64,000 bases of DNA, taken from positions 248,001 through 312,000 of the forward strand of contig NIVC01000297.1 in assembly GCA_002269645.1 (NCBI GenBank), given 5' to 3'. A program made the translations under genes and the position numbers. Source of the DNA: Macrostomum lignano. Lineage: Eukaryota. Below the pieces are notes generated by a model. That model did not search any database and was not told the origin of the DNA. It saw only the letters and a program-made list of their open reading frames with translations. Each line of letters starts with the position of its first letter. Within the stretch, counting starts at the first letter, position 1. Shown here piece after piece: positions 366-20,671 of the stretch.

Positions 366-429
366 AGTAGTATTATTAAATTACACGCACCCCACATTTT
401 TACATGTAAAAATGAATATAGTCCCCACC
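366..429 (+). repeat. Left terminal inverted repeat of the Polinton
   Basis: agtagtattattaaattacacgcaccccacatttttacatgtaaaaatgaatatagtccccacc matches the reverse complement of 20608-20671 at 61 of 64 positions. Confidence 0.9.
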
Positions 430-683
430 TACACTCGAACTGTAATACGCCTCCGTCAGTTCGAGCTAACGAACGAAACGCAACTCGCCCAAGCCGGCGT
501 TCGATAAGGTACAAATCTTAGCTTTCTTATCTTAATACGACACACTAACCAACACTAGCGTTCTCCCAAAAGAAATATTGAATTCAAAGTCCAATTCTTC
601 CTTAGCCTTGGCCATTTATTTCTGCAAAGTATATTTGACTGAATTCGCCGCAAGTCCATACGCATTAAAAACGAGTAAGCAAA

Positions 684-1235
684 TTACCGCAATCTAATAC
701 GCAGATAGTTCATCGCGAAAGAACGCAAACGATTATAACAGCGCTTAAACAGATTCTCGGCGCCACCACCACTAATCATGCTCGCTAGAAAATCCTTCAA
801 ACCACCACCACGATGCAGTTTAAAGTATAAATAAAACAAAACCCATATACCACAGTGCAGACTTGTTGGTTCTTGAATAGCAAAACGCGAATATTCCCAA
901 TTTCCCCCTCCACAATTCCGTATAAACCACCGACGTATTAACTCACATGGATTTAACCCCAAGGAATCGAAATACTCTCCCTTCCTAGAGCCCCTCCTAC
1001 CCAACCTAAAACCCCCCACCCATAACAAAACCCAATGAGAACCCGGCAAATTTGAAGTATCGGTATTCACGATCAGAAAATAATGCCTTCTGTCTCTCGG
1101 GATTCGCGGGATACTACTCAACAAATCGACAGGAAAAATACCCAAAAAACAAACGTCTTTAAAACCGTTACATAGAATAATCACAACACGTTGCAAGAAC
1201 AAGTTCGTTACACCTTCGCCTCGCCTCATTTCCAA
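684..1235 (-). CDS. Adenain-like (C5) maturation cysteine protease
   Basis: VNTDTSNLPGSHWV (His), YFDSLG (Asp) and QEPTSLHCG (Gln/Cys) motifs. Confidence 0.9.
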   Translation of the reverse strand: MEMRRGEGVTNLFLQRVVIILCNGFKDVCFLGIFPVDLLSSIPRIPRDRRHYFLIVNTDTSNLPGSHWVLLWVGGFRLGRRGSRKGEYFDSLGLNPCELIRRWFIRNCGGGNWEYSRFAIQEPTSLHCGIWVLFYLYFKLHRGGGLKDFLASMISGGGAENLFKRCYNRLRSFAMNYLRIRLR

Positions 1236-2548
1236 GCGGTTCCTGGCACAACGTCCCGCAGTTCGGTAATCTGTAGTTGCTTGTCGAAAACACCACCGAA
1301 AATAACGTTATAGACCTCCGCTGTAGCCGTTCCAAAACGCATCTCCAGTCGGACATTCCCTTCCTTATACAATTGTACCGCCGGCGCAACTCCCCCGTCA
1401 GATCCTAACGAATACGCGAGTATCGTATACCCTCCGTTGTAGTCCGCCATCGAGAACCCCAAATCCCGTCCTTGTAAATACAAACCCAGTTGTTGACGCA
1501 GAGTTGTATACTCCTTTGCACAATCCCCTGTGAAGTCGAATTGACTAGGCCGTGTCGGTACCGCCTCACCATTTACGTAAACTCCAACGCTGATCAAATT
1601 CGCATGCACGAAATTGAACGGATTTGTCGCCAGACTTCCATTAAATGCAGTATTTCCAACGACTACCACCAGCAAAAGACGTGGCACTCCGCTCGGAAAC
1701 AGATTTTCGTGCGTATGGCTTAACGACCCTTGCGGTATAGTGAACGTACCCAATGATAAACTGCGATGAGGGTACAAGGCATTATGGGTCTTCAAACCAT
1801 GTGCATGGGCTCCAATCACACTGGCAGATGGCTGAACATACCGCAAACGAAGCTCCGCACTCTGAATCTCAACCTCGTAATCCTTTAACACTGCCTCACC
1901 AATCTGTGCGGCACTTAACACGAATTTGCTCTTTGCCGGTAGTAACTTTATCCGCAAAGGCGTCTTTGACAACAAATACCGTGGCTGACGAAATAGATCC
2001 AAAAACAAAGGCCCTGAAACCGTACAAGTTCTCCCACCCGCAATTAGTGCCTGTCGCTTCACTCGCCCAACGTTCGCGACGCCGGTGGCATTCATTTTTC
2101 CAGCAGTGTCCTTGTAAAATCCCCAGGCAGCCAATCCGCCGTCTTGTCCCAACCGACCATACTCCAAAAGCGTCAGAAGCATGGCCTTGTACGGATACAT
2201 GAAGCTCCCGCCTTCAACGACCGTATCTCCTATCCGCAATTGCACGTCTTCGAACAGCGTACTCACCACCATGTTATTCAGACAGACATAGTTTTTCGCA
2301 GCATCCACAGCCCCTCCACTCTCGTCTACTACTCGGATTCCAACAGTTAGAACTGTTTCTTGTAAGTCGACATACAAATCTCCAGCCGGTACAATCTCGA
2401 ACTCAATTGGCCCTCCTTGCGTAATCCCATGTTGAGGCTGTATATCCGTGTAGCGACTGTCCACAACACTGAATTGTACTGGTGGGCTGTCAAATAACGT
2501 CAACTCACTTTTCAATCCAGCGACGTCAGGCCCCAACAACTGATCCAT
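1226..2548 (-). CDS. Major capsid protein (double jelly-roll, Polinton PY/hexon-like)
   Basis: 440 aa intact ORF; N-terminus KSELTLFDSPPVQ...PIEFEI...YVDLQET and FNGSLATNPFNF are characteristic of Polinton MCPs. Confidence 0.85.
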   Translation of the reverse strand: MDQLLGPDVAGLKSELTLFDSPPVQFSVVDSRYTDIQPQHGITQGGPIEFEIVPAGDLYVDLQETVLTVGIRVVDESGGAVDAAKNYVCLNNMVVSTLFEDVQLRIGDTVVEGGSFMYPYKAMLLTLLEYGRLGQDGGLAAWGFYKDTAGKMNATGVANVGRVKRQALIAGGRTCTVSGPLFLDLFRQPRYLLSKTPLRIKLLPAKSKFVLSAAQIGEAVLKDYEVEIQSAELRLRYVQPSASVIGAHAHGLKTHNALYPHRSLSLGTFTIPQGSLSHTHENLFPSGVPRLLLVVVVGNTAFNGSLATNPFNFVHANLISVGVYVNGEAVPTRPSQFDFTGDCAKEYTTLRQQLGLYLQGRDLGFSMADYNGGYTILAYSLGSDGGVAPAVQLYKEGNVRLEMRFGTATAEVYNVIFGGVFDKQLQITELRDVVPGTAWK

Positions 2549-2941
2549 CTACTTGCCAAACAAACTGAATAACTTTTTAGTCGTGGCGCTCGGCTTTTTC
2601 TTTTTACGTATGCGTCTAACTCGCCGACCACGTCCAACCTGTTTTTTTACCGCAGGTGTCTTTCTGCTTATACCCTTTTTCCTGACTCGTCGTCGCTTAA
2701 CCACAACTGGTCCATCAGTAGTCGTCAATCTACGTTTCTTACCCATTCCAATCGTCTTCTTCAGGAAGCTTAAACCGCCCTCTACTAAATCCTTCCGAGC
2801 TCTACGTAGCACGGGATATATCACTCTCTCTGTTAAATTCGTCAAATATCCGTATCCCTCGTACACAGGTATCGAACTCGACCCACCACCCGTCCGCGGC
2901 TGTGTACTAGGTCCCGAATAGAATGCAAAAACCGGATCCAT
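2549..2941 (-). CDS. Basic virion core protein (adenovirus pVII-like)
   Basis: 130 aa, very Arg/Lys-rich C-terminal half, xxGG putative protease sites (RTGG, VEGG); its stop TAG directly abuts the MCP ATG. Confidence 0.6.
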   Translation of the reverse strand: MDPVFAFYSGPSTQPRTGGGSSSIPVYEGYGYLTNLTERVIYPVLRRARKDLVEGGLSFLKKTIGMGKKRRLTTTDGPVVVKRRRVRKKGISRKTPAVKKQVGRGRRVRRIRKKKKPSATTKKLFSLFGK

Positions 2942-2970
2942 GAATGCCGAGCGAAACTATACGTCAAAAT

Positions 2971-4112
2971 CTACTTAAAGTGCTTTGCTAATACCCGTGC
3001 TGTCTCTTTATCTAGATCTGATTCAGCCAACCACTGACCTCTCGAGTCGGGCATTCCCTCCCACTTGACAAAATATCGCCTGCCCTTCTTCCCCATACGC
3101 TCAACACGCTCGACCCGATCAATTTTAACAACCTCCGCCTCAGGTTCAGCCACTAGAAGCAGTTCACCTTGGTTGAATCGACCCTCCAACACTGTCGAAT
3201 CGTCCTCGGGTCTAACAGACCATAAGACGGTGGCTTCGTAGAATACACCCGATGAATTCGATACACCCTATTACTCCATGTCGTTGTGTAACCCTTCTCA
3301 AATTTTCCCTTTTGACGTGCAAGTCGTACCCAATCACCAACCTTAAAACGCGGAATAGGCCTCACATCGTCGCCATACAACTCCTCCCACACCATGCCCT
3401 GCAGATGGCCATCCGCACTCACATCAATGGGGCTACGACCATTTAAACTGCGGTGTGGAGAGTTATTCAACGCAAGCTCTAATTTTGGTAGAACATCAAA
3501 CCACCGGGCCAGATTTCGAGTCCGAAATAGTCGTAGTAATCGCTCCTTCACGGTGCGTATCAATCGCTCAGCCATGCTCGCTTTGTAGGTACTCTGACTT
3601 ACGAAAAATCGTACGCCCTCACGCTTTAACATCGACTGAGTTTCTCGCCCAAGAAACTCTCGACCAGCATCGCCTTGTAAGTACAGCGGTTTAAACCCCG
3701 TGCGGAATATCTCATACAATACACGGCTCACCTCACTTGGCTTCTTCGTCTTCAAAGCTCTCAAGCGAGCCAACCTAGTGAAACAGTCGACTAATACGAG
3801 GATGTACCTGTAACCACGGTTTTCGTCCTGATATTGCGGTAAGTCTGCCAAATCAATCTGCATTTGAAATTTTGCAACGGGCGGTAGTTGTATTTTCGGA
3901 GTTTTGAACTTCCGATTCGACTTCTGGAACAGATGTATCTCCTTCGTCCTACGCACCCACTTGTCAACAACAGCCTTGGCTTTTTTTTGCGTTAACTCCG
4001 GATACCTCCGCCTCAAAACTCGTATAAATTGCTTCTTATTGCCACTAAACGCAGTAGGGCGTTCCAAGTCGAAAAATGCCACGTCCAGAAACTTAAAAAA
4101 AATCGCTTCCAT
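2971..4112 (-). CDS. Retroviral-type (rve) integrase with C-terminal chromodomain; one frameshift near 3200
   Basis: QIDLADL / LQGDAGREF / MAERLIRTVKE DDE motifs in ORF 3153-4112; chromodomain YFVKWEGMPDSRGQWLAESDL in overlapping ORF 2971-3192. Confidence 0.92.
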
Positions 4113-4139
4113 CCTCCGTATTAGCGACTCTCCAAATTT

Positions 4140-4313
4140 TTATGATGCAGAACCCACATTAGTATTGCAACAGTTAAAACTTGCCTTTACCGTTACGTCT
4201 CCGTCAGGCTCCTCTGCGCGCAGTACGCGTTCCAATAAATTCGCAATGCAACCACCCTCCCCCAAAAAACAAATTCTAAAACGCTTGTACAACCACTGAA
4301 ACACATTCGCCAT
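4140..4313 (-). CDS. Small hypothetical Polinton protein (57 aa)
   Basis: Hand-translated MANVFQWLYKRFRICFLGEGGCIANLLERVLRAEEPDGDVTVKASFNCCNTNVGSAS; fills the gap between two packed genes on the same strand. Confidence 0.35.
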   Translation of the reverse strand: MANVFQWLYKRFRICFLGEGGCIANLLERVLRAEEPDGDVTVKASFNCCNTNVGSAS

Positions 4314-4361
4314 CCCCAGACTCGATATATTTCACGTAAAATACAATGCTTATACATTACG

Positions 4362-5027
4362 CTAGAGTCTCATAATCTTCCAAGGCTTGCAAGTCCCCAC
4401 CGCGCGACTCTGACTCGGAGTAGGTTCCATGGGTGTTCCTTCCTCCAGAACGTTTCGCATATGCCGCCCTAGCATCGACGGTGGAATTGATTCCCTGCGA
4501 AGCAGTGAGACGAAACGTTCCAGCTCTGCCGCCGGAGGCGATCTCCCTCGTTTCAATGGTTGGTCGCGAGTGACATACTCTACTAGCTCGTCAAAATCTC
4601 CTCCTCCAATCTCATTCGCAGCACCTGTCAGCCTTGCCTTCAGACGGTCGAAACGTGGTTGTACATTACGGGGGAGTCGCCTCCCCTTCTCGGTCTCACC
4701 CTCCGTCGGGCCATCATGACCAACGGATGAGCGAACCTCTGGCGGGGTCTCACCATTCTTATTGTACAGAGACCGCGTTTGTAGCAACCGACTCTCCAAA
4801 TCAGTTCTTTCCAACTGTGCGGTTGTAGGCTGCAGACTAGTCGATTCACCAATCTCCCGGTCAAGCCTATTCATCTCACCTTGCATTTCAACAATATTCT
4901 TACCCAAAGCGTCCACAGGTCCGTCCAATACTCCCGTCCTTCGCTCATCTTTCGACGTACATTCCAAATAAGCCTGCAACGGCAGCAAAACCATTCGCTG
5001 AAGAGTTCCTCCTCTATTGACTGGCAT
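4362..5027 (-). CDS. Hypothetical Polinton protein (221 aa)
   Basis: Intact ORF packed 1 nt after the upstream stop in the structural cassette; no motif recognised. Confidence 0.6.
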   Translation of the reverse strand: MPVNRGGTLQRMVLLPLQAYLECTSKDERRTGVLDGPVDALGKNIVEMQGEMNRLDREIGESTSLQPTTAQLERTDLESRLLQTRSLYNKNGETPPEVRSSVGHDGPTEGETEKGRRLPRNVQPRFDRLKARLTGAANEIGGGDFDELVEYVTRDQPLKRGRSPPAAELERFVSLLRRESIPPSMLGRHMRNVLEEGTPMEPTPSQSRAVGTCKPWKIMRL

Positions 5028-5028
5028 A

Positions 5029-5466
5029 TTACCTACGCCGTCCGGCCCGAATTGCTCGAACTAGATTTGCCGTCCCCGCAGCCGTACCGGCCAATCCCGA
5101 TGTAATCCCTAGAGCCGTGCCAATGGCTGGCAAAGCAGAAATTATCGGAGCAAGAAACGGCAGGAAACCACCACGCTGTACCAAAATTTCCTTCCTGGCT
5201 CTAGTTGATTTTTTCTCCTTCAACAATTCTTGTATCGGTTTCCGATAGCGTTCTAAACGTTTCTTGTCACACGACTTTAACGGCACGCGTCCTTTTACGA
5301 TATTCAAAAGAAACTCAACCAGGCAACGCACCTCGCCCGGACTTAAACTTCGCAGAAATCGCTTGCGCTGGTCCAATCCCCGAAGCCTCGCGACAACTTG
5401 CAATAGGAAGGCACACTGGGACAATGATCGCGCGCTTTGTACGCTCTTTTCTGTCAGCCCGGTCAT
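5029..5466 (-). CDS. Conserved small Polinton virion protein with QRGG-FL site followed by a hydrophobic/amphipathic segment
   Basis: ILVQRGGFLPFLAPIISALPAIGTALG; this QxGGFL architecture is common in animal Polintons. Confidence 0.7.
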   Translation of the reverse strand: MTGLTEKSVQSARSLSQCAFLLQVVARLRGLDQRKRFLRSLSPGEVRCLVEFLLNIVKGRVPLKSCDKKRLERYRKPIQELLKEKKSTRARKEILVQRGGFLPFLAPIISALPAIGTALGITSGLAGTAAGTANLVRAIRAGRRR

Positions 5467-5510
5467 TGTCTATCATGCCTTCTACTGATTCCGACTGTAC
5501 TTGCTTATAA

Positions 5511-6467
5511 TCAATCGTCTCGTACCCTGAAGTGCAGCACAGCAATCACATGGCTTCCATCAGGGAAATTCAAATCTTGCCCCCGTTGGTCGGCCAGACG
5601 AATGGAGATCTCATTAATGTAGCTCCGATTTGTCCGCAAGTAATATGGCGTCTGCAAAGCATTTCCGTCTCGTCGAAATATTCCGTTCTTTTCCTGGCGA
5701 AACTCAACCACGCGAAGTAGCGGAACCTGACGACTTCCAACCATTTGATATTCAACAATGTCGCTATAGCAGTACATGTAAACACTCCGCAGTATCGCTT
5801 CGGGTATTCTATCCAAATAGACCTTCGTCAGACCCCACGCACGATTTTTCCTCCAATACTCAACCACCTCCTTTAACGTATCCCCGGCAGGCCGTATTAC
5901 CTGCGTACTCTTCATCCAGACGGCGAAACCAGGTTCCAAGACAGCACGAAAATCGTACCAATTCGAATCTAATATACCTGCCTCGTCCATTGCATTCGTT
6001 ATGTTCGTCCAGGATTCACCCGCCGCATCCGCGGGTTGGGTGCGTCCGTCGTGAGCTGTCAAACCCCACGTACTGAAACCAAAGCATGTCAAAAAACTCC
6101 TTGGCAGTTCAATGCCCATACGTCGGCTGCCGGAATTTCGCAAATACCAAACATATGCTTTAGTAGCCGGCGTCCACGACAAGTGTACCTCCAAATCATC
6201 GGCCTGCCAGACCTTACCCAAGAAGACTTCATCTGTTTTCTCGATAATTTTCTCGATGTTGCAATAATATATCACCTTCACCTCTTCTCGAAGTTCCGCC
6301 GAGGAAGTTTCCGCCGGCGGGCTGTTACATAGCAAATCCACCAAAGCCACTTCATACTTCCCAGCCGGCGCTAGATTCAATGGTGTAGTTAGCCGCACCC
6401 GAAACTCGTGCGCAGAATTGGTCGGATAACTACGATCGTTTGACGGAATAAACACAAAGAAACTCAT
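5511..6467 (-). CDS. Minor capsid protein (penton, single jelly-roll)
   Basis: N-terminal FxxxxPSN...PTNSAHEFRVRLTTPLNL...YEVAL and C-terminal YSDIVEYQMVG...LLRVV...ISIRLADQRG...VLHFR motifs. Confidence 0.8.
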   Translation of the reverse strand: MSFFVFIPSNDRSYPTNSAHEFRVRLTTPLNLAPAGKYEVALVDLLCNSPPAETSSAELREEVKVIYYCNIEKIIEKTDEVFLGKVWQADDLEVHLSWTPATKAYVWYLRNSGSRRMGIELPRSFLTCFGFSTWGLTAHDGRTQPADAAGESWTNITNAMDEAGILDSNWYDFRAVLEPGFAVWMKSTQVIRPAGDTLKEVVEYWRKNRAWGLTKVYLDRIPEAILRSVYMYCYSDIVEYQMVGSRQVPLLRVVEFRQEKNGIFRRDGNALQTPYYLRTNRSYINEISIRLADQRGQDLNFPDGSHVIAVLHFRVRDD

Positions 6468-6497
6468 AATCTCACCCCATAAGCTGTAGCCGCTTCC

Positions 6498-7219
6498 TCA
6501 AAACTTGCTTATAATATCCTCCTCCTTGATAGTCTCCGGACGCATATAAACAACCTGGTGAGTGTCACTCGGAAAGACATTCGTCCGTATGCGTATCATA
6601 TCCGGCGTGTCCTGTCGTAAGTCTATGAAGAGATAGCTGAAGGCCTTGTCACCCGTCGCGTCGTCATAAGCCTGCACCAGAAATCTACTAGCTCGGGGTA
6701 CATCTGCCGACCCAAATGTTCAACGGCGCTACGATCCCTAACATTTCGGCTTAAACAGATATAACTCGTCGATAAACTTCTTTTTCTTGCCTCAGGATCC
6801 GCAGGGTCAAACAAATTTTGGCACAAATAAAGACAAGTCAATGGCGTATGATGAGCCAATTTGGTGAATACAGCGGTAAAAGCGCGTTGCTTTGCAACTT
6901 CACCCTGCAAATCATCAACAACGACTAAATCGTGCGGCTTGAATCTAGCCAACAACTGATCGGGGAATCCCTGTACGAAGTGACATTCGCCACTTCCACC
7001 CAATGTCCAACATTCTCGAACTCGTTTTTCCTCAGACGAATGTAACTCTGTACCGTGACACCAAATTAGACGCCTTGGTACTACTCGAAACAGACCCAAG
7101 CGCTCCCTTACCAGTCGAAGCACCCATTCAGTCTTTCCCGAATTCGAAGGACCTGCGACGATAAACGTCGAGTCATGAGCAAATCGCAAGTCGAATGTAC
7201 GCCTGTCCATTCTAGGCAC
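6498..7219 (-). CDS. FtsK/A32-like genome-packaging ATPase; one frameshift near 6690
   Basis: Walker A GPSNSGKT, Walker B VVVDDL, HH...QNLF motif; the shifted frame continues AYDDATGDKAFSYLFIDLRQDTPDMIRIRTNVF to a stop at 6498-6500. Confidence 0.9.
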
Positions 7220-7633
7220 CCAAACGCTGTTTTACGTTCATAACACGGGATACCAGTTTTGCGGCCAAACGTTCCCCCCACTTAGTTGTAGGATCCGCAG
7301 CAATCTCTCGAGCTCCTGCTTCGAGTTGTTGATCGGCCTTTGAACGCTCTGCCACGTCCGAGTGCTTCTCGTATGCCAGGTCGTGTAAGAGACACAATTT
7401 ATCGAGCCGATTCTTCCCAGTATCGCCCCGCGCTAAACGTTCTCTCAATCTGGTCCCGGGCCGCAGAATTGGTAACCCCCCGGCAAATGAAGCTCCCCTG
7501 GGAGATGATTTATTACCCAATTAACAATACCAAACCCCGTCTGACCTCGACGACGAGATTTCTTAGCTCGAGTCGACTTTGCTGCTGTCGAACGCACTCG
7601 CTTCTTCTTCTTCTGTCGGCCTTGTGTTCCCAT
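7212..7633 (-). CDS. Parvovirus VP1u-type phospholipase A2 (PLA2X); one frameshift near 7455
   Basis: ELHLPGGYQFCGPG (Ca-binding loop) then TRLRERLARGDTGKNRLDKLCLLHDLAY (HD catalytic dyad); basic N-terminus. Confidence 0.85.
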
Positions 7634-7778
7634 CCACTTAATTGTACCAAAAGAACCAATTGCATTTGCTTATACACACAGTGGTTAAATCCACGAGCAG
7701 TATATTGTATTAATAATCAAAGTGACAAGCCGCCACCAATTCCCACCACCGACCGACGGGCTCCGGGCGTGACCAGCA

Positions 7779-8394
7779 TCACATGTTAGTGCTGCCCATG
7801 CCACCCGTCTCGCGAACCGCCACCGGCTCCGGTTGTCGGTGCCACACCCCCGGCAGCTGGCCCTCGCGAGCTCGACCGACTTCTACCGGGGGCGTGACGC
7901 AGCGCTCCAGAATCAATTGGGCCACGCTGGTGGCACACGACAGATGAACTTTCTCATCTGACGTGTTGTGCAGGATCACGCGGAGTTCCCCGGTATAGTC
8001 CGGGTCAACCACGCCACCCTGCACATTTAGGCCTCGGTTGGCCCAACTGGACCGGCTCGCTATCCGACCATAGGTGCCGGCGGCAGCATCACCCGGAGGC
8101 CGGTGCGAATGATGGCCGTGTCAAAGGCCTCCACAGTGCGGTCTTCGCACGTGGCTAGGTCGTAGCCCACCGACCCGGCCGTAGCTCGCGAGGCATCACT
8201 GCCCCGGCATCCGTGAGCACTACGCGCAGCGGGACCGTCGAGCAAGAGTCGGAGCTCATAGTGGCTGCGGGATCATAGTTCATCTTATGCTTAGGAGGTT
8301 CTTCGTCCTCTAAAATAAGTCTAGTACTACCCGCGTAATCCTCGTCCCAATCAAAAAAACTAAGCCTAGTACTAATCCCCTGCACTGCCATCAT
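7779..8394 (-). CDS. dut: dUTPase; two frameshifts (~8175, ~8075)
   Basis: Motifs across the shifted frames: SVGYDL, GRIASRSS, GGVVDPDYTGE, VAQLI, RETGGMGST. Confidence 0.85.
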
Positions 8395-8519
8395 AGGCCT
8401 AGAAAAACGAAGAGAAAGAAGGAAAGGCGGATTCTTGCATATACATTCGATAATTGCGCGCATATATTGTGTGCAGAAAAAGCATAAACAGACAGAAAAC
8501 AGAGAGCGGAGAGAACAAG

Positions 8520-11500
8520 TCAAGTCAACCGCCAATGACCAAATGGGAGGGATGAGTAGGGATCGAGCCAGGCTCGCTTCGTGTCGAAGAAGCTAAGCGC
8601 CTGCTTGCGCTGCTCAAGAAGATAAATCTTCTGTCGTCGCGAAGTAATCGTCCGCATCGTTACATGCTCCAAAACTCGATCCTTCAACACACTCAAAAAT
8701 ACATTGTGCTTCATACCTCTTACAATCGACTTCGACACGCCCTTGCAACGCACAATCTGACAGAGGCTTTCCTTTGCATACACCATTGAATAGTTTTTCG
8801 GGCGTAGAAATGCAAACTCCAACAGTGTACAACCGGAAACTTCATCTTTCCAGGCCATTAACTTCCCTTTATACTTTGTTGTATAAAGCGGATGAGAAGG
8901 TGGATAATTACTAGTGTCTAACACACCGCACTCCACCAAGTCTTTAAACAATGTCTCCTGAGGACTCGTCTCCGGGTCGGCCATAACCAATGCCAGGATC
9001 AAACTATCCGTATCTCCACCAAGCACGCGGCAGAAGCAAGCGACCTATGGCATTGAATCCTTGAATAGAAAAACTCGTAGACAAATGTTTTCGCAAGGTC
9101 CAGAATAGCGCTACCAATCAGAATTGGCTTGTTTAGCAATACTCGACGAGGAGTCAAACTCACGCCCGCTAGACGATCTGTATACAGAATCACGTCCATA
9201 AACTCCTCTTTAGCGACATACGTTTCCAACTTCTCGGCAGTAGTACACATGCGATAGCTGAGTCGGTCTCGAACTCGCTGCAGAAACTTGCCGTACACAG
9301 CATTGTTCAATAGTTTAAAGAAATCTCGATCGAAATCGCTAGTCGCCTCAGACCGCCGACGAATATTATGTTCAATATATTCCTGTAGAATAGGACCTTC
9401 TACGAATTCGAGAACACGATTAACCCGCGTCACGCGCATGCCTAACTCGAGGTAAAGACGCAATGCTCGATGATGTACAATGTACCCTGTTTTATGCGTA
9501 ACAGAGCCAATTAGTTTCCTTGTCGGAGAAGTGAATCGTTTTACGTCCTCGTATACCTCCGCATTCCTCTTCCTGGGATCAAGCTGGCGTTGCAGACAAA
9601 CCCAATCCTGCTTCATATGCTCGGTTAAATAGGCACTATCAATTCTTTCATGGCCAATAGCCAGAGGTAGATCGGCAGTTGAGTCGTGCAAAAACTTTGG
9701 GTAGTAAAGATCGACATTCAATAACGCCCCTCGTCCATTCGAGCAATAGCTAGACAACCAAGCCAAAAACTTGCTCGACTTGTTCGGATTTTCCAACTCA
9801 GCTGCCTCATCATCAACTGATAGATTTTCAATCACTTCACGGGGCAACCAACGATAGGCCTTATACGGCAGCGCCTGCACCATACAACTGGCATAAAGAG
9901 AATTAGCATCAAGGTAGGCCAAGTGAGTGCCATACGGTGCATTCCGCCGTAGTTCTCTTAAATGTCGTCGTCGTCATCCAGCTGCCGACGCATTCTTCTA
10001 CCATTGGATTATTTGCCGTAGTAAGATGGCGAGTGCCGAAACTGAACCCACCTCGAATCGAAGCTTCAACCTCGGAGTACATACGAGCGTCTGTAAACAA
10101 CTCGATCGGCTTCTTCACCTTCAACAGACACGCAGCCAGACTATACATTGGCGATCCGAGAAAATGACACACATCCAAACCGTATTCTCGAATTGCAGTG
10201 CGACGAAAACTCTCAAATACGTCGCATAACAGTAGTACATCCAACAGTAAATACGCAGTCAGATAGTCACGCAAATTGGCACAATCAAACTCTTGCCAAC
10301 TCTGCTGAGCGCGTGTGTACTCCTCCTTAGAACACTCTTGCCGGGTCATTGCGTCGTAAAACAAATCTCGCGATGGCAGTTCAGTCACACTGTCCAACTT
10401 CTCTTCAGAGTCCAAGTAACAATACGGAAACACTCCCTTCTGCTGCAGAGTAGACAGTTGGAGTTTAGGATAAACATTCAGCAAATCTCGACAGTGTACC
10501 AATTGTTCCTGCGTCAAACGGTTTGCCAGACTAGCTAGACTTGTCGACAAGTACGCAAAACGTGTCCTTGAAGCAGATTCAAACCNNNNNNNNNNNNNNN
10601 NNNNNNNNNNNNNNNNNNNNNNNNNNNNNNNNNNNNNNNNNNNNNNNNNNNNNNNNNNNNNNNNNNNNNNNNNNNNNNNNNNNNNNNNNNNNNNNNNNNN
10701 GCCAGACTAGCTAGACTTGTCGACAAGTACGCAAACGTGTCCTTGAAGCAGATTTCAAACCAAACAAAATTCTTCTTCTTCTGCTTTTGTTGCTGCGGCC
10801 GTTGACTGCCAACCAGCAGCGGTACCTTGAACTTTAATGAAAACGTCTTAAACCGTTCCCTAGACTCGGGAAGAACGTGCAGTTGAACGTCGTCTTCTCC
10901 ACTAAACACATTGTACACCTCACGAACAATTATTTTACCGTCATATCCTCGAAGATTGTGCAGGTAGACGATAATTCGATAGCGCTGCAGGGCAAGTTTT
11001 CGATTGCACGACATGCAAGCCATTCCACGTGGAAGACCACTCAAATGACAATGATCCCAGACTTGAGACTCGTCAGCGGAAAACTCGCGACGACAGACGT
11101 AGCATCGATCTGCGCTAGGACGCTGACCTAGATACTTTCTAAGCATTGGTCTATAAGTCATCTTGCTAGTCGCATTAGTTACTTCGAATGCAAGCTCGCG
11201 CAGAGCCAAGAGAAACCTGCCAATACAATCTGTTGTGCCAGGCGTAGAATAAAACAACTTGCATGGAGTATTGTATCTGCTCAACAAATCCTCCCTCGTT
11301 ACACTATCCAAATCCGGATCGACAACCAAACGAAAGGCCACACAAACGGGCACGTGAATTTGTAAAACACGGCTGTTAGCCGTAGGCACTGGCAGGCCCT
11401 TGACGAGGCCCCTCGATGCCTTTTCAACAGGTACAAGTAGACTCTCAATATCAGCATAAACCAAATACAGCGGCGGCAGTCGAGTCTCGTAGGCTGAAAA

Positions 11501-13142
11501 AGACAAAAGCTTTGCCCTCCTCTGGTAAAACCTCCTCCGTGACTGGCTTTGGCGTTCGAATGAAGCCGCCGCCGCCGCCGCCGCCTGGTTGCTCCTCCGT
11601 CGTCTGGCCACACACGTGTTCTTTCAAGATATAATCCCAAGACGTGGTGTGAATAAAGCTCGCCAGACATTCAGGACAATAGCGCCGGCGTTTAGCACGA
11701 GAACTCAACAGCCTATCCAGATTTAGCACCGCCATGTAGTGTCCATACTTGAATTCTGCGTAAGGTGGTATGAACAGACAATTGACTGGCGCAAGGTCAC
11801 CAGTGGAACGACGAAAATTAAAAAACAGCACGGCAGTATTCGTGGCATGACTCCAGACAAACACACGCATCAGTCTAATTCGAGGGTTCAGCCGGCAAAA
11901 CTTTCTGTAGCTCCCAATTGAGTGACGAGTCACTCCGGCGCGCGTAAATCGAAAGCTTTTCAGCCAAGGCCTGTAAGACGCCTTTCGCCTTTTACGGGCT
12001 TGCCCTTCGACCTGTGAGGAAAAGACGCTCGACACGACAGCATACATAAAACAATCATGCTGATCTGCTCGGTGCGGGCGTAGAAACAAAACCGCTCCCG
12101 GCATACGACCAACAGCCAGTGGAACGCGGAATGGAACGGAACGGGTCGGAGCGGATTCTGTTGGACCGCCGCCCGCCTGCGCGCCCGCCGCCGCCGCCGC
12201 CGCCACGCCCGCCGCCACCACCACCGCCGCCCCGCCACCCGCTCCCCACACGTCCTGCTGCTGTTGCCGACGACTGCTAGTGTTCGACTGTAGTAGTAGA
12301 TATTTTCGGCGGAATATGCACAGCATAACGTCGACCTTGACAACGCCGAGGAACTTCCAGTTACTACCTCGGGACTGAAAGTTGTCTAATTTAGCTACCA
12401 GATCGTTTGTTGCCTCGCTGTACCATTGGTTGAAAACGTCCTCAGAGAGAAGAAGTACACGGCGGCCGGCGGCTGGAGCATTCGCATCGAAGGAGACCAT
12501 AACGACTTTGGAATTGAAAAAGGGCGCGATTACTTCTACCTCTTCGTTGTGGGGGGATTCACCAACAGCCGTGTCATTGGCGGGGGGATAACGAGTACGA
12601 TACATTTTTACATTAAGATGTATACATGTACGGAGTAAACAGTCCGCAGATCCGAGAGAGTTAAAAAGACGAAAAAGTGGAACTTGCAGTTGTGGAAGTA
12701 ACTCGCTGGGTGGTTCGGTCTCGCCATCGTCCTCGTCCAGCAGAGGCGTGAACGTCAGAAAGTTCGCCCGACCTCGGTGTGCGGACTCGGTATGTTGTAC
12801 CGACCAGCCTGGTGGAGTGTCCTCTTCGATTAGCCGACGCACTGGTTCTCGAAGTAAAAGTTGGTCTGGTTGATAGCACGAGCCATTGTGCGAGTGCCCA
12901 TGGAGGGCGGCTTGACTGTTGAATCTCTGCCGGCACACAGGGCATCTGATTTGTTTCGTCGTCGTCGTCGACGGCTGGAATGGTGTTGGCGATTGTTGGC
13001 GACGGGGTGGTTGTGATAATCGCCTAAATAGTTTGCTCGGTGGCAAAAATAAGGAAGGAATGCACAGCCTTAAGTTTGGTGGACAGTCCGAAAATGTCCT
13101 CCGCCGCGTGGTTAAACTGTATTTTACTTTGCAGAGATACAA
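8520..13142 (-). CDS. polB: Protein-primed family B DNA polymerase (pPolB) with N-terminal terminal-protein region; split by several frameshifts and an N gap
   Basis: In order: FQSRGSNW, GHYMAVLNLDRLL, VYADIESLL (Exo I), DHCHLSG..RG.AC..CN zinc finger, HNLRGYD (Exo II), KGVFPY, YLLLDVLLLCDVFE (Exo III), IRGG, YLDANSLY (A), KLLNNAVYGK (B), GDTDS (C), PKNY, KGV. True start not resolved; the track start is TTG. Confidence 0.93.
10586..10700. other. Assembly gap (115 N) with a 61-bp sequence duplicated on both sides
   Basis: 10525-10585 and 10701-10761 are the same sequence apart from homopolymer lengths (aaaa/aaa, tt/ttt). Confidence 0.95.
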
Positions 13143-13435
13143 TTATGTAGACAATTTGAATATTTAGGAATGAACAGCAGGCTAGTAAGTAGTAGGTCGT
13201 TGATGGTGGTTGAAAGAATAGAATCGTATAACTTAGTCAATGGTAGTGTTTTTAGGGGTCTGAATCAGTTCGAATGGATCATCATGATAAACAAAAATCG
13301 TTGGGTACGCATGGGAATTTTACCTTCAGGTAGTAATAGTGGTAGGTGGTGTTTTTTCAACTTGGTAGGGGCTCGGTTGAATTTAGGTGTTTATCACTAG
13401 AGCAGAAAATCATTGTTGTTAATATCAAGTGCATG

Positions 13436-14818
13436 TCAGAGCTCACGACGAATGATGCCGCCAACAAGATGGGCTAGATCGGTCGTAGATGTATCCGATC
13501 TGATTAGAATTTCGTGTACGTTCGAGTAGTCCTGGTAGTGGCGTGTAAACGCCTCGTCTAGCGACCGTAGATAGTCCAGGGAGATGCCAGTCTCCTCACC
13601 GCTGCGTCCGCGCTGCGCGATGCGTTGAATGGCCAACTCCGGGTCAATGCGCAGGTAAATAAGCGTCGTGTTCGCGCCGGTAAAGGGTACCCCAGTCGCT
13701 TCGAGGACGTCTAGTTGGCGCTGAGCAATCGCCCATTCGGTGTCAGACAGCGAGCCTTGACGGTGTAGTACGTCTTGGAATGCTCGAGCCGACCCGAGGC
13801 AGCGGTCGAGGATAACCACCTTGTTGTTGGATTGTTGGTTAACCTCATTCCGGACCTGGGTGGTAACACAAGATTGGCAAAAGTAGCTATACCGTGCGTG
13901 TCTTTCGACATTGGTTGTACATGTAGTAGGAGCTATACGAAAGGAATTACTAGATACTATAGTACCACTTACTTTGCTGTCTCTGTCGAGCAAGTCGTGG
14001 GAGACGTGCTGTTGGAATGCGACGGCCGGAAGCTCGCCTCGATAGAATGACTGAAGCAGATTTACCGAGTCCGGGAGGAGCGGGTGTCGCGCGTACTGGT
14101 GAACAGGCTCGGGACCGAAGACGGCTTTGTCGGCCCAACCCTCGAGGCGGGAGGTGAGAGCCAGTTCTCGAAGCAACGTCGACTTCCCGGCACCGATTAC
14201 GCCCTCCAGGAGAAAAATGCGAGACTGGCTCGTCATATTGGCTAGAATTGGAACAAATTCTGGTTTCGGAGCGGCTTCCTGACACAATTGTTTAACAATG
14301 TTGATCATTTCTAAAATCTGGCTAGTAGTCTTTGCACCTATTATAACGATCTTAAGGGAATGAAAAATATTGCACACCGTCCTATTGAGTGGAGCAGTAC
14401 TACGGAGGGTGACGGCTTGTGGGAATATCTCCGCGTCGTAATACAGCCGAGCTGTGCGAAAAGGCCCGATAAAGTTTTTCAAGGTCGAAAATTTGAGTCC
14501 AGGATAGTGGAGCAGACCAACGGTTGTAGAGCTGATTATACGAATCGATGTTTTGATTAGTTTAATTACTTTAAGGTGTATGAAATTCAGGGCACGTAGA
14601 AGTTGGACTCGGGATCTACAGCCATAAAGCGTGAGTAGTCCGCCGGGGTAGAACTGACATGAAAATTGGGGCAGTCCGATACGAAGCATACTTGGCTTGG
14701 CGGAGTATAATTTGGAGGGGATTCCCGCCTGGCCTAGACGTTTTTTTAGCCTATTTAAATCTAACTTTTCTCCTGGAGGGGTACTCGTTCTGGCTTGCAC
14801 TATTAGTAGGACCAATCT
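13436..14818 (-). CDS. TBP-like domain in frame with a deoxynucleoside/thymidylate kinase
   Basis: N-terminal ~175 aa shows both TBP repeats (KLDL..., QFYPGGLLTLYGCRS; YDAEIFPQ..., NIFHSLKIVIIGAKT). C-terminal part has P-loop LEGVIGAGKST, EPV, ILDRCLGS, YLRIDPELAIQRIAQRGRSGE and DYLRSL of the dNK family. Confidence 0.85.
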   Translation of the reverse strand, partial: RLVLLIVQARTSTPPGEKLDLNRLKKRLGQAGIPSKLYSAKPSMLRIGLPQFSCQFYPGGLLTLYGCRSRVQLLRALNFIHLKVIKLIKTSIRIISSTTVGLLHYPGLKFSTLKNFIGPFRTARLYYDAEIFPQAVTLRSTAPLNRTVCNIFHSLKIVIIGAKTTSQILEMINIVKQLCQEAAPKPEFVPILANMTSQSRIFLLEGVIGAGKSTLLRELALTSRLEGWADKAVFGPEPVHQYARHPLLPDSVNLLQSFYRGELPAVAFQQHVSHDLLDRDSKVSGTIVSSNSFRIAPTTCTTNVERHARYSYFCQSCVTTQVRNEVNQQSNNKVVILDRCLGSARAFQDVLHRQGSLSDTEWAIAQRQLDVLEATGVPFTGANTTLIYLRIDPELAIQRIAQRGRSGEETGISLDYLRSLDEAFTRHYQDYSNVHEILIRSDTSTTDLAHLVGGIIRREL

Positions 14819-14956
14819 CTGAAAAGAATAAATACGAGAAAAAATTCAGTATAACGGTTAAGATTTTATATATTTCTGGGTGATGCGTTTCCGTTTACGG
14901 AGAATGGTAGTTAGAGTTATAGGTATAGCTTCCCGCCACCAAGTGAACGCTAACGG

Positions 14957-16047
14957 TCACTGTGCGAAGACTTCATCATCTTCGCTGTCCATGGGCTCCG
15001 TCGAGGCCCCCGAGTCCACGTCCCCTAGTGCTGGGTTGGAGGCTGCAGCTTTACCCGCTTTGGGGACAGTATTGGTAGCACCGCTTACAAGATCTTTGAC
15101 GGGAGTCACCGTGATCCAGTCTTCAGCTGCTGCTGCTGTTGTTGCTGCTCCAGTCGTCTTGGTGGGGCGTTTGGCGGGGCTGCGACGAGTTGGGCCTTGT
15201 CGTCGTTTTCGTCCGCTAACTGGTTTCACTAGCGTCGTCGTAGTTGTTGACTCTTCTTCCTCAGTTGCGGCGGTGGCGGCGATTGGAGTCGACGTAGTTG
15301 GGATGTGAAATCGCAAAGCTTGGGCTAGCATCGGCAGGTGTTTCGGGTCGTCGTCGACCAGTGTCAGCGAGCGAAGGGCGAGGCCGAGGCGCCATGTCTT
15401 GCTTTCCTTCTGACGATAAAGACTTGTGAGCTGAACGGAGAGATGGTAAAGACCGCTAAGTCCCCTCAGCTCGCTTGTGTCAACTTCACGTGGGTGTTGA
15501 TTAGGCAGTGCTCGAAAGGTGAAACATGGTAGTGTAGGTTTTATGGCAATCCACTGGGCAAAGCCCAGGTCGCCTTCCTCGGTGGCGCGGGAGATGCGAA
15601 GCAGCGGCATCGGATCGCCCATTTGCTTTAGTTTGATAGCGATGCCTCTTTCGACTTGTCTAGCGAGAGCAAGGGGAATGAAAAGCAGTAAGAATTCATG
15701 GTCTAGTGAGTATGCACATGTAACAAGGATGGCGAATTCTTCAACTTACTTGATGCATTGTAGGAATTTGCTGCAAAAGGCCGATGATGACAGTCCGATG
15801 GCCACCGCCTCACGGTCTCCGGCTAAAAACTCTCCGGCATCCTGTATTTGGACACCACGAAGAATCTCGACTGGGGTCGTGGTTTGAATCACTAGTGGGG
15901 ACCTCCTGTCGACTTTGGGGGCGTCCACGTTACGCTACGGAAGGTGCAGCTTGCTGTAGGAGCGTTGGGTTCGCCTAGGTGGAGATTACCAACGTCGGCT
16001 TGGATAGCACCCGGTTGGAATACGGATTCGGCAGCGAAACCAGCCAT
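14957..16047 (-). CDS. Putative ssDNA-binding protein (T7 gp2.5/NCLDV-SSB-like); intron 15660-15749 and one frameshift near 15920
   Basis: Kozak aacaccATGG at 16047, TATAAAA at ~16138-16144; GTAAGT...pyrimidine tract-CTAG 90-nt intron removes an in-frame TAA and joins QCIK to QVERG; PLVIQT motif, beta-rich core, acidic tail DSEDDEVFAQ. The gene model is better supported than the product call. Confidence 0.55.
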
Positions 16048-16742: not shown

Positions 16743-18481
16743 ATGACAATGGCCGAGGCTCAGGACGGATCGCGGGAAGAGTATTGGAAGGCACAGGAGG
16801 GATACTTTGAAGAATTGGAACGCAAATTCGCTTTCGTGGACTACGGTAGCGATCGACTCCGACGAGTGTCGCCCTTGAGTAGACCGTCTGGTAAGTATAG
16901 TTTTTTATGACTGCCACTCCTCTTGTATGGCACCGTATTTTGATAGGGCATCATATACCGACTTCAGTAGACGGGCAGCAAGACCTCCGTCCGGTCGCGG
17001 TAGTTCCGCCTAGTGTGCGTGGCCGCGAGGATCCCTATGACGGGGAAATTACTATAGGGAGGAATACGTTCCCACCAAGGACAGAGGTATGTAATATGCA
17101 TTCTGAGTTCGATTGCTTTGTGGTAGTATAACTTACTATGCCTTCATCTACTGGTAGGATTACTTCAACGCAAGGACGGCAGCTTTGGAGGAGCTACGTG
17201 AGGGGACCCGAGGTTCGCTATCGTGACGCGGGTTACGACGTAAGATTGATTTTTAAGTTAGTAGTGCCTGAGCTTGTACTTGACGAGTTCATTTTGCCTT
17301 TTTTAGCAACTATGCATGAGTGACCGAGTAGTTTTGCAGCACCAGTGGGCGACGGCAGTTTGTACGCGAACGCATGAACTGGTGCCGGAGATGGTGGCTC
17401 GGGGAAGGGAGGTACGAGACAATATTCGTATGCTTTTCTTATCACATATTGCATTAATAAATAAAGAATTTCCATTCTCATTTTAGGAGTTTTTAGCCAT
17501 GGTGAGTGGAGATGTGCTTTTTGGTGTGGTATAATTCACTCGTCCGTATGAAAATAAATTTACTTGTCTGTTCTTTATTCTTGAATCGTAGATTCGCGGA
17601 CGTGGTCGTCGGACTCGAAACGAGGTATGGATATTGTTATTTTAATTGAGTGTGATCCTAGTTCAATATTGTAGCCCAGTTGTATTTTCTGCTGTTGCAT
17701 ATTCCAGGCTGCGTGTGTTTCGTCCAGCCCCACACAGCTTACAATGGTCAGTAGTCGCTTGGCATTGATTAAACATTTAAGATATAAAGGCTGGAATCTT
17801 ATTTGACATTTCAGGCGAATTGCGCGATCGGAGAAGGGCGAGCTCCCGGACCACCGCAGCCATGTGTCCCGGTTAGTGATACATCGAAAACCATGCTCTT
17901 TATTTTGGCGGTATGTACATAAGTAGCTCGGTTTGGGAGGTGCTCTTCACGTGCCGGTTTAAGATGGAGTTACGAGGTTTTATGGTAGTAGAATTCGTGT
18001 TATTTAGTGTGAGACGGGACCGTTAATGCATGAACCAGTTCTACTTTATGCTGCCACGCATTCAAGACTGCATGGCATTGATTAAAACTTGAGGGTGTAA
18101 AACAGTTGAAATCTTATTTTTTTAAATTGCAGACAAATTTCGTGTTCGGACGGGGGCGGACTCCTGGACCGCCGCAACCTTCCACGGTTGGTGTTACGTA
18201 GAAGAATATGCTCTTCTTTGTAGGGTGTTCACAGTCATATCGGGTGGGGGGGGGCAGGTTGGTAGTGGTTTAGGGTGAAATATGCAAGTCTATGGTGGTA
18301 GAGTTTGTGTTACAACAAAGAGTTATTTATACAATCAAATTTCAGATTCCGAAGCCGCCATCCGGAAGTGGATTCCCTGGTGGTGGTAGGGTTAGTAAAT
18401 TTTATATTGATTGCAGCGTAGTAAATTGACCTGGTAAATGTATGTCATCTTCTTTGGTTTCAGGATGCGGACCTGTCGTAG
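16743..18481 (+). CDS. 11-exon gene of unknown function inside the Polinton (~244 aa)
   Basis: Exons 16743-16890, 16947-17086, 17158-17239, 17307-17411, 17487-17501, 17592-17624, 17708-17746, 17815-17871, 18133-18186, 18346-18390, 18464-18481. All ten introns are GT-AG and the frame is maintained if one extra G is removed from the G-run near 17203. Confidence 0.72.
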
Positions 18482-19448
18482 GCATTCGGGACTCGGCGTG
18501 TGGGTTGGTTGACTCCGTCGCCGCCGTCGGCTTGTTTATGTGGACTGTAGGGGACTTGTATTTGTAAATGTTTCGTATGCGACTTTTATTCAGTGAAGGC
18601 TTGGACATATGTGTCTATTTATTCTTTTGGATTCGCTCTGTGTGCAGTATCGTACATGTAAATACAGTGTGGCGTAGATCCAAGGCCTTCGTTCGATGTA
18701 AGGGCTTGCCAGCGGGGTGTCTGTCTTGTTGTGTCATCGGTGGAAATATAGCGTTGTTAAAGGATAGGTTTGGATCTTGTTTGTCTTAGGGCTAAAGAGA
18801 GGGGTGATAAACTCGGGGTTTGAGTTTTCGGTGGTGTGGTTAGTTCTAGGGCTTCTGGGGTGGGGGGTCTGTATTATGGGGTCTGGTTTATCTCAAGTGG
18901 GGGGTGAAGCATGGGGGTGGGAGTCGAATCACCCCGGGGGAATCTTAACGCGGCAATATTTTTTAAATCGCATGTAATTTGCTTTAGTTCTTTAAATTCA
19001 ACTTTTATTCAATTTTATTTTATTTACTTGTTAAAAACTTTTAATACACAAATATACCGGTTCGTCAATGAATGTATTAAAACTTGTAGTGCTAAAATAC
19101 ACGGATTCGATGTTGGTTGAAGTAGCTACTGAAGCCGGCGTTCAATCGAGAGGGCGGATAAGGTAAACAAAAGTGCAAGATATGCATATGTAGATGCCGC
19201 GGAGACGGATGAAAAGTAACAGAAAATATGCGAAAAAGTATAAGTACGAATATGAGTGGTTGGTATCGAGGTTTTGAGTTCTATGGGTAAAATATTGAAG
19301 CCTAGTGACGGTCCCCCTGGTTCTAATCTGTACTACATAAAAATGGAAAATACTATCCTGATCCTAAAATTGTAGACGTTTCGAGAAGTTTAACAATACA
19401 GCATAATAATGTTTGTTAGCAGGTAGGCGAGTACACTTAATGGCGGAT

Positions 19449-20030
19449 TCAGTCAATCAACACGGCCGTGGACGATAGTGGAAAGGTCGGCATGGACGGC
19501 GAGCGTGGTGTTGAGGTCCATGTTGGGGCAGCACGGCGGTTTGGGTTCGGTCCGGGTGAAGGTGTTTCGGTGCTGACTCTGCAAATAAGAGCGGAATGCT
19601 TCGGTAGTTGGGGGCCATGTTTCGGATAATGATTAGAATTTACTTACGTCTGAGTGGCTTGAGAATACTCTTGGCTACGGAAGTCATTCGGACGGCGGGA
19701 CTCGGGAGAGCGGATGCGTTTGTAGCAGTGGTGAAGCAAAGCGAGCACCAGGAACAGAAAAATAATTAGAAAAACGACCTTCAGGGCCACCAGTTGCGCA
19801 CTTGCTAGGTTGATTAGTTTGTTGACGCTTTCTCCGATTGCAGTAAACATTTGGGTATTATTGTATGCCTGGACGGCTATACGATTTCGGAGCTCTTCTT
19901 GGGAGTAATGGGAATTCTCGGATAATTGTCTGACAACTGCCGAAAGTTGTCTGGTAGTTTCCGCGTTGTTTTGGGTGGCTTGGGCCTGTTTAATAAACAC
20001 AGCCAGTATTTTTTGTAGTCGGTTCGCCAT
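19449..20030 (-). CDS. Two-exon single-pass membrane protein (~170 aa) inside the Polinton
   Basis: Exon 20030-19648, intron 19647-19579 (GTAAGT...TTTGCAG), exon 19578-19449 in frame; TM segment VALKVVFLIIFLFLVLALL followed by HHCYKRIR; AATAAA downstream near 19000-19025. Confidence 0.65.
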
Positions 20031-20607
20031 TAAGATGGTTATACGAGACTCGGTGAACTAATAAACTTGCCAGACTATTCACTCGAGAATCCGACTTGAC
20101 GCCGTTTTTAGCGCTTGCGTCTAGAAGTTTGTATCTGTTCAAACCCTCAAGTCGTGGGGAGGGGTGGGGGTGGGGGGTACAAGTTGTGCGCGGGTGGTTG
20201 ATGAGAATCGGATTTTAATCGATTAATGTGGCGGGGTGGGTGTACATTTCGCTGTGTGCGCCCTAGCGTTTGGGGTAAGGTCTTTTCTCGGAAATGTAGC
20301 ACTTATGGTCCGGCGGGAACGGAGTATGGATCGTAGAGTTGGTATAGAATGCAAGTGGTTTATTTACGGAGCAAGTGGTTATTATAATCTTCGCAATATC
20401 TATTACTGGAAATGGCGCAGGCCGCGCTCGTGAGTAGTGTTGCCTAAGGCCGAGTAAAGCGTATACCTTATCGTGCGTTTAACACGGTTTCGGAATTTGA
20501 AGTGCTTGGTGAATAGTCTGTTGGTTTCCACCTACTCGGGTGCGACTGCGAGTATAAGATAAGTAGGGGTACGATTTGTAGGCGGCTCGCTTGAGCGGGT
20601 TAGGACG

Positions 20608-20671
20608 GGTGGGGACTGTATTCATTTTTACATGTAAAAATGAGGGGTGCGTGTAATTTTATAATACTACT
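20608..20671 (-). repeat. Right terminal inverted repeat of the Polinton
   Basis: Ends in ...ataatactact; inverted copy of 366-429 with 3 mismatches. Confidence 0.9.

Follow-up and report, generated by a model that had tools for sequence, protein, structure and literature searches.

In the accessible part of a survey of vertebrate Polintons (also called Mavericks), intact elements are described as having no introns in their genes (Barreat & Katzourakis 2021, PMC8097293). Maps of animal alpha adintoviruses carry dUTPase and SSDBP labels (Starrett 2021, PMC8502044, text of Supp. Fig. S2), and the accessible figure legends of that paper name TBP for non-animal MELD viruses only. We analyzed an element at positions 366-20671 of a 64,000-nucleotide stretch of the Macrostomum lignano genome (contig NIVC01000297.1, positions 248,001 to 312,000), referred to here as the window; coordinates are window positions. 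The element is a Polinton with the core genes and a large-virus-type kit, which consists of a single-stranded DNA-binding protein (SSB) with a predicted fold of the nucleocytoplasmic large DNA virus (NCLDV) type, a TATA-binding protein (TBP) homologue, a deoxynucleoside kinase (dNK), and a dUTPase. An earlier note on this DNA had described such a Polinton, with a membrane open reading frame (ORF), intron-containing genes and a large-virus-style kit, and the element ends, profile matches, fold model, and splice joints all agree with that description.

Like published Polintons, the window element has terminal inverted repeats (TIRs) with (AGT)2 ends, 6-bp target site duplications (TSDs), a length of 20 kb, and genes for pPolB, integrase, a putative ATPase and protease, and capsid proteins, and a single-strand gene layout is found in it and in X. 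tropicalis elements (accessible part of PMC8097293). Unlike vertebrate Mavericks, it carries an extra SSB-TBP-dNK cassette, and RNA-like contigs from four runs of four studies show at least 10 spliceosomal introns in it. Polinton genes can be spliced, contrary to what the accessible text of PMC8097293 states for vertebrate elements. The PLA2-like virion gene, pX-like protein, and integrase are shared with alpha adintoviruses. However, alpha adintoviruses have a PLA2 with a C-terminal pX (PLA2X), whereas the pX-like match of the window element lies on an ORF separate from PLA2, and no dNK label, splicing, or late box was found in the accessible part of PMC8502044.

The SSB is like NCLDV and T7-type SSBs (African swine fever virus [ASFV] CP312R, ranavirus p31K, and T7 gp2.5) in its predicted fold and acidic tail, but its gene is split by an intron and predicted to be spliced onto TBP, and identity is about 10%. 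Beta- and gammaherpesviruses encode a TBP-fold protein (ORF24/BcRF1/UL87) that acts at the TATT box of late genes with recruitment of host RNA polymerase II, and NCLDVs have TBP-like factors. The role that we propose for the element TBP resembles that of these late or intermediate factors, because a virus-coded TBP fold would serve a noncanonical TATA box. However, those factors come from genomes of more than 100 kb and work in multisubunit complexes or with a viral polymerase, whereas here a TBP of about 186 amino acids (aa) is encoded by a 20-kb element.

A literature search outside Repbase and most subscription papers found no description of a Polinton dNK, an SSB-TBP splice, or a TATAAGCA box. 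Four further sources were a preprint (10.1101/697771), PMC6431247, PMC12220804, and 10.64898/2026.10.13.758929; the accessible parts of the last three hold nothing on these genes. Part of the gene set was already in print, as the dUTPase and SSDBP labels on the animal alpha adintovirus maps show, but in the accessible literature the whole set was found in no published Polinton. This suggests that the single parts have precedents and that the conserved SSB-TBP splice and the TATAAGCA box are new. The element bears on the timing of Polinton gene expression and on the very existence of a viral program. It offers a factor (its own TBP), a cis-element (TATAAGCA, in three families), and a predicted factor-making splice, all in a laboratory-tractable flatworm.

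A spliced accessory block with SSB, TBP, and dNK genes

In the window copy, dNK and TBP are matched within one ORF, 13439-14845 on the minus strand (Pfam E values of 7e-24 for the dNK profile, PF01712, and 7e-6 for TBP, over the cut-off). A homologue search with this ORF gave one match, a host-labelled gene model; public proteins nearly identical to element genes carry the Macrostomum lignano label. The dNK gene itself (13436-14230, minus strand) contains a 117-nt intron (13856-13972) and is in frame with TBP only in the window family. Its product has the P-loop, EP, xR, and lid motifs of the dCK/dGK/TK2/Dm-dNK family, and the best solved match is named deoxyribonucleoside kinase (E 1.5e-8). 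By profile and motifs, it is a putative kinase of that family.

The TBP homologue (14231-14818, minus strand, about 186 aa) has two repeats; its frame opens at a phase-0 splice acceptor and lacks an ATG ahead of repeat 1. Alignment to solved TBPs covers both repeats (residues 15-173, E about 0.007), the NCBIfam TBP profile matches over 18-178 (E 6e-5), and all 30 ESM atlas matches are TBPs (up to 0.96), with recognition below the usual level. A homologue search with the TBP domain alone scored none of 86 candidates. We take the canonical TATA-contact residues of TBP to be two Asn and four Phe, the intercalating Phe included. Compared with these, both Asn positions and the first Phe are replaced, the second Phe is Tyr, and the Phe pair of repeat 2 is kept. 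The alignments point to a divergent TBP homologue with a two-repeat saddle, not a canonical TBP. Its identity is 20-29% to the host TBP and its paralogue versus 34-40% to the TBPs of sister families in the same genome. Recent capture of a host TBP was considered and rejected, because the element TBP is at most 29% identical to the host TBP family.

The SSB gene (14957-16047, minus strand) has a TATAAAA at -97, an intron at 15660-15749, a phase-0 donor after 15089, and an acidic tail, and its exon 1 is broken near 15.9 kb in the window copy. Sequence and profile searches with SSB gave no match. A structural model was built from a 15-row alignment (mean pLDDT 69.6, compared with 33.6 for a single-sequence model). 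Foldseek matched it to ASFV CP312R with an E value of 1.6e-5. A separate fold comparison gave Z 12.4 for the same protein (rmsd 4.5, 183 residues aligned), and T7 gp2.5 came in the next rows (Z 7.5). There were 117 viral models at E ≤ 0.001, and among the 50 matches listed the named ones were NCLDV proteins. The product is therefore modeled as an OB fold of the NCLDV/T7 gp2.5 type with an acidic C-terminal tail. Outside M. lignano, a single SSB homologue was found, an unnamed protein of 203 aa encoded on a contig of 703 bp.

This block belongs with the rest of the element. It is joined to pPolB in six other contigs of the window family, and the order SSB-TBP-(dNK)-pPolB is found in all sister groups read, including families whose major capsid protein (MCP) is 64-75% identical. 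We computed dN/dS (w) against a diverged in-genome relative and did not rely on the few changes within the subfamily at 95-97% identity. Values were 0.17-0.18 for dNK, 0.14-0.16 for dUTPase, 0.17-0.20 for the pPolB palm, and 0.39-0.40 for a plus-strand gene. The accessory kit is thus carried by the element and evolves under purifying selection in this comparison. TBP and dNK share one stop-free reading frame in two of 10 loci, both in the window family, and the dNK intron is missing from all six other loci measured. Both the frame fusion and the intron are derived features, and with only those two loci in frame we rejected the fusion as an ancestral trait. The most numerous sister family accounts for 29 of 68 SSB matches; none of its 29 contigs has a dNK match, and dNK was absent beside TBP in 3/3 stretches read. 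PF00352 gave 150 scored matches in the genome. Apart from the host genes, three divergent matches were read, and each is located between the pPolB and ATPase genes of another Polinton, in families whose MCP is at about 30%. In a fourth, distant family the TBP match is weak, and TATAAATA boxes and a Fic-domain ORF are present. The genome offers natural comparisons between families that have or lack dNK, that fuse TBP to dNK or keep the two apart, and that carry different boxes.

The RNA-like contigs show at least four minus-strand and at least six plus-strand joints over 13.8-19.7 kb, all of them GT-AG (among the 15 of 20 joints listed). By run, the minus-strand introns were found in 4/4 for the membrane gene, 3/4 for dNK, 3/4 for SSB, and 1/4 for the joint from the SSB tail to TBP. 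None of 11 spliced joined forms tested occurs in 44 genomic loci. The spliced accessory block that the earlier note placed at 13.4-20.0 kb does contain introns, but one of its genes is on the plus strand. The dUTPase lies outside it, between pPolB and the structural block.

A matching SSB-TBP splice pair was present in 10 of 12 loci from six groups. The donor is a phase-0 GTRAG in the SSB tail that follows a K-x-L motif, and the acceptor, also in phase 0, is a pyrimidine-AG at codon 1 of TBP; the motif search did not match the other two loci. Nine of the 10 paired loci lack a nearby in-frame ATG at the TBP start. Because the TBP frame has no ATG of its own and begins at the acceptor, an upstream exon is needed, either that of SSB or a trans-spliced leader. 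The conserved sites predict an SSB-TBP fusion protein made by splicing.

A candidate late-gene box and competing explanations

TATAAGCA has five matches in the 64 kb, all five on the coding strand and within 2.6-7.7 kb. They are at -41, -43, -46, -124, and -242 of the PLA2X, pX, penton-like, MCP, and integrase starts, respectively (5/9 structural genes). As a control, we scored any 8-mer over the nine upstream windows in random tilings of the structural block and in Markov sequences (2000 each). Some 8-mer reached five of the nine windows in 7/2000 tilings and 0/2000 Markov sequences. All four sister-family copies (MCP 64-75% identical) have four exact TATAAGCA boxes each, every one on the coding strand, and in the three copies read in one piece these precede the PLA2X, penton-like, and pX orthologues. 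The box is kept in three families, which are the window family and two sister families. A TATAAAA-type box stands at the SSB gene in 3/3 families looked at. In a distant family that also encodes a TBP, 6/11 upstream windows hold another box, TATAAATA.

We think it probable, with considerable room for doubt, that the spliced early block encodes SSB, TBP, and dNK and that the element's own TBP switches on the capsid-module genes through TATAAGCA. Host RNA polymerase II would start the SSB unit at its ordinary TATA box, and the host spliceosome would process the transcript. Two products could then arise by alternative splicing, an SSB that keeps its acidic tail and an SSB fused to TBP (with dNK added in the window family). 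pPolB would copy the linear genome from its ends by protein priming while the displaced strand is covered by SSB, with dNK and dUTPase helping to supply clean deoxynucleoside triphosphates. The element TBP would bind TATAAGCA and recruit host polymerase to the intronless structural genes, and integrase would insert new copies with 6-bp duplications. A bolder version is possible but doubtful. In it, the late-gene activator of this animal Polinton clade arises when a giant-virus-type SSB and a TBP of shifted specificity are joined by splicing, which would tether the TATAAGCA reader to genomes undergoing strand displacement. A 20-kb element would then couple late transcription to replication with a single protein. 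The conserved splice and the box make a Polinton transcription cascade directly testable.

Several observations weigh against this proposal. The TATAAGCA motif was picked by eye, and its raw count is unremarkable (5/100 window shuffles reach five matches). Two of the nine structural genes have only a one-mismatch box, and two more, ATPase and ORF221, have none within 250 nt. Two host TBP-family genes were seen, so the host TBP or its paralogue could read the box, and no TFIIB-like partner was identified in the element. The TBP piece gave w of 0.48-0.60 on 43 codons. The SSB-TBP joint came from one run (X8), with one side of 30 nt, and other contigs are unspliced across it. The donor motif interrupts four public gene models, none of which joins the TBP start. 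The RNA nature of the contigs is the tool's guess, with none recorded as RNA, and the contigs carry neither level nor timing and no tissue labels.

The scarcity of the cis joint, with one run in four, would fit a stand-alone TBP, made when a host trans-spliced leader ending in AUG joins at the phase-0 acceptor. The SSB donor would then be minor or regulatory, and the late switch would hold without the fusion. A phase-0 acceptor without its own ATG fits a leader AUG exactly, and the terminal AUG of the flatworm leader can start ORFs (accessible part of PMC9851317). However, six groups whose TBPs are only 32-62% identical share the position and phase of the cis donor, and there is no loose end at 14818 among the contig ends listed. 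We regard this leader version as rather unlikely. The reader of TATAAGCA might also come from elsewhere, either host factors or a coinfecting large virus, with the element TBP as a decoy or host-shutoff protein. Several DNA-contact positions of the TBP are changed, profile scans identified no polymerase or TFIIB-like gene in the element, and virophage late promoters mimic those of helper viruses. However, the box goes with the TBP lineage in three families, and in the distant family both the TBP and the box are different. The spliceosomal introns also imply nuclear host transcription rather than a cytoplasmic virus factory. Dependence on a helper or on the host therefore seems to us distinctly unlikely.

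The earlier note had read the kit as an adaptation to productive infection of nondividing, differentiated cells. Purifying selection on its dNK and dUTPase matches that on pPolB in strength, and RNA-like contigs cover early and structural genes. The role of dUTPases and nucleoside kinases in large DNA viruses is established. Against this, inherited copies require integration in germline or stem cells, and the most numerous sister family has no dNK match. We find this reading on balance improbable as the explanation of the kit; it is compatible with a late switch run by the element TBP but would be an extra claim, and a guess. The same note called the lineage intermediate between Polintons and large viruses, which holds as a description of gene content but not as tested descent. 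It had also allowed that the accessory block might be misassembled host DNA unlinked to pPolB. The window element is itself an assembly chimera with mismatched TSDs, the block has host-like introns, and GC skew changes sign near 12.5 kb. However, the same block stands beside pPolB in the six other contigs, inside the same right TIR, and the gene order recurs in all sister groups read. The predicted SSB fold is of NCLDV/phage type, and TBP and dNK are at most 29% and about 25-40% identical, respectively, to their presumed host counterparts (partial matches). Misassembly or recent capture of host DNA is refuted because other copies and sister families link the block to pPolB, and we give it almost no credence.

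Other genes of the element

All core genes are encoded by the minus strand and are arranged as pPolB, dUTPase, PLA2-like, ATPase, penton-like ORF, pX-like ORF, ORF221, integrase, basic ORF130, MCP, and protease. pPolB (8520-13142) matches DNA_pol_B_2 in pieces over 9002-10583 (E 5e-12). Upstream of its first ATG lie about 115 codons (12606-12950) that include a C2H2-like finger. In sister families this part is 40-56% identical and comes after an ATG. In the window family, the pPolB start may be supplied by splicing. The dUTPase (7779-8463) has five motifs recognizable by eye and Pfam matches in two frames (7782-8272, E 3e-16 and 9e-5). It is broken near 8.1-8.2 kb and is one open frame in 1/4 other spanning copies.

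Stop/start overlaps between adjacent ORFs are visible in the structural block, as the earlier note had said of an intronless, overlapping block. Of 12 joints in short-read contigs over 300-12450, only one has intron ends (1086/1636). This is a minus-strand GT-AG joint from the MCP interior to the protease ORF, found in 2/4 runs in contigs of a diverged subfamily. It is out of frame, and we rejected it as a route to the protease.

The MCP gene (1226-2548, 440 aa, TATAAGCA at -124) is open. A search gave 103 homologues with E values down to 1e-187, of which one carries the name major capsid protein and many are F54H12.2-like. A quick tree took in 69 rows, made up of 64 of the 103 matches and five from the M. 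lignano genome. In it, the element MCP forms a group with three unnamed proteins and two families from the same genome (SH-aLRT 100), and named proteins of fish, echinoderms, molluscs, and corals (31-35% identity) fall outside this group. Scans of viral contigs with MCP, the pPolB palm, and the MCP alignment found no relative; a metagenome scan gave two short contigs at 33-35%.

The putative adenain-like protease (684-1229, TATAAGGA at -140) has His/Asp/Cys motifs by eye and no Pfam or other profile match. An ORF at the same place in sister families is 43-49% identical, and protease and ATPase are kept in all families read. A basic 130-aa ORF (2549-2941, K+R 28%, TATTAGCA at -52), whose N terminus is kept in sister families, likely encodes a core protein. 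The retroviral-type integrase (2971-4112, TATAAGCA at -242) is broken near 3.2 kb in the window copy and 380 aa long in 2/2 other spanning copies. It matches rve over 3156-4112 (Pfam E 3e-7, 31 bits versus a cut-off of 32.6) and an IS481-type DDE profile (E 4e-14), and the D-D-E residues can be read directly. Its C terminus (2971-3150, in frame in other copies) resembles a chromodomain by eye.

ORF221 (4362-5027, about 221 aa) is conserved and frame-broken in the window copy. Next to it is a 145-aa ORF with an adenovirus pX-like end (5029-5466; Adeno_PX over 5032-5466, E 1e-4, under the cut-off; TATAAGCA at -43). The 318-aa ORF at 5511-6467 (TATAAGCA at -46) has no Pfam match and is likely a minor capsid (penton) protein by position and size only. 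The putative A32/FtsK-type packaging ATPase (6498-7210) is broken near 6.7 kb; Walker A and B motifs were found by eye, and the Pox_A32 match is weak (E 0.03). The PLA2-like virion protein (7212-7633, TATAAGCA at -41) is broken near 7.46 and 7.63 kb, and its PLA2 profile match (7215-7520, E 3e-4) is under the Pfam cut-off.

Beyond SSB, a minus-strand gene at 19449-20030 encodes a single-pass membrane protein. Its 128-aa ORF (19644-20030) has one 19-residue stretch with mean hydropathy 3.18, and a 69-nt intron (19579-19647, 4/4 runs) adds a Pro/Ser/Thr-rich tail. A weak homologue exists in one sister family (E 8e-6). The plus-strand gene (16743-18481) has about 11 short, mostly phase-0 exons and about 240 codons; six introns are in the RNA-like contigs and the others are predicted. 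Exon 3 is frame-broken in the window copy, and three exons had no Pfam match. Two repeated Gly/Pro exons (17815-17871 and 18133-18186) are short phase-0 duplicates, and such symmetric micro-exons could allow length variants. Atlas look-up of an opposite-strand ORF of a sister family gave no usable match.

Ends, copies, and state of the window copy

The element is a young, multicopy, adintovirus-like Polinton. Inverted arms of 71 nt (359-429 and 20608-20678, 93% identity) contain the termini, AGTAGT at 366 and ACTACT at 20671. The left TIR (366-429) is flanked by AGCGTG and the right TIR (20608-20671) by AACGGT, so the window itself holds no TSD. Five left ends each match a right end in a different contig by an exact 6-mer. 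The window left end pairs with contig C4380 and the window right end with the left end in C1668. The other pairs are C362-left with C1431, C1430-left with C362-right, and C356-left with a far end in C1668. Because its flanking TSDs mismatch and their partners are found in other contigs, the window copy is an assembly chimera of two insertions. Near-identical insertions (0.06-0.8% substitutions) have been cross-joined by the assembly. Other copies include a subfamily at 2-3% divergence and a deleted relative at about 70-88%. The left insertion site lies inside a Gypsy-type gag ORF (PNMA-like; 2-365), whose upstream half is found beyond the right end in C4380 (G000:C4380, L028:9220-9820). The continuation of this frame supports the 6-bp TSD pairing.

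Integrase, ORF221, ATPase, PLA2, dUTPase, pPolB, SSB exon 1, and the plus-strand gene are all frame-broken in the window copy. Short-read contigs differ from the window at the 12 best-supported indels over 300-12450, eight of them at full depth in at least 3/4 runs. Because the breaks are absent from these contigs, the frameshifts are probably assembly errors. Homopolymer context was rejected as their cause, with runs of only 1-4. Three short-read runs bridge an N-gap in the window copy as a false duplication.

Both termini of one further insertion (G000:C1668:41380-42966, L024, and C356:648990) appear to be left ends, one of them an inverted 1.6-kb duplicate of 366-1952, and the 6-bp TSD of this insertion matches. 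It looks like an integrated copy-back (panhandle) derivative, as strand-displacement replication would give. The deleted relative occurs three times (G000:C3945, C280, and C3654) with near-identical matches, as do the host TBP genes, pointing to duplication of a host segment or chromosome rather than three insertions. To the right of the element, tandem repeats are numerous from 21.4 kb onward. The ORFs at 38782-40278 (plus strand) and at 47372-48511, 52888-53808, and 58232-59053 (minus strand) are presumably host genes, resembling by eye a Shaker-type potassium channel and a FERM/PDZ protein.

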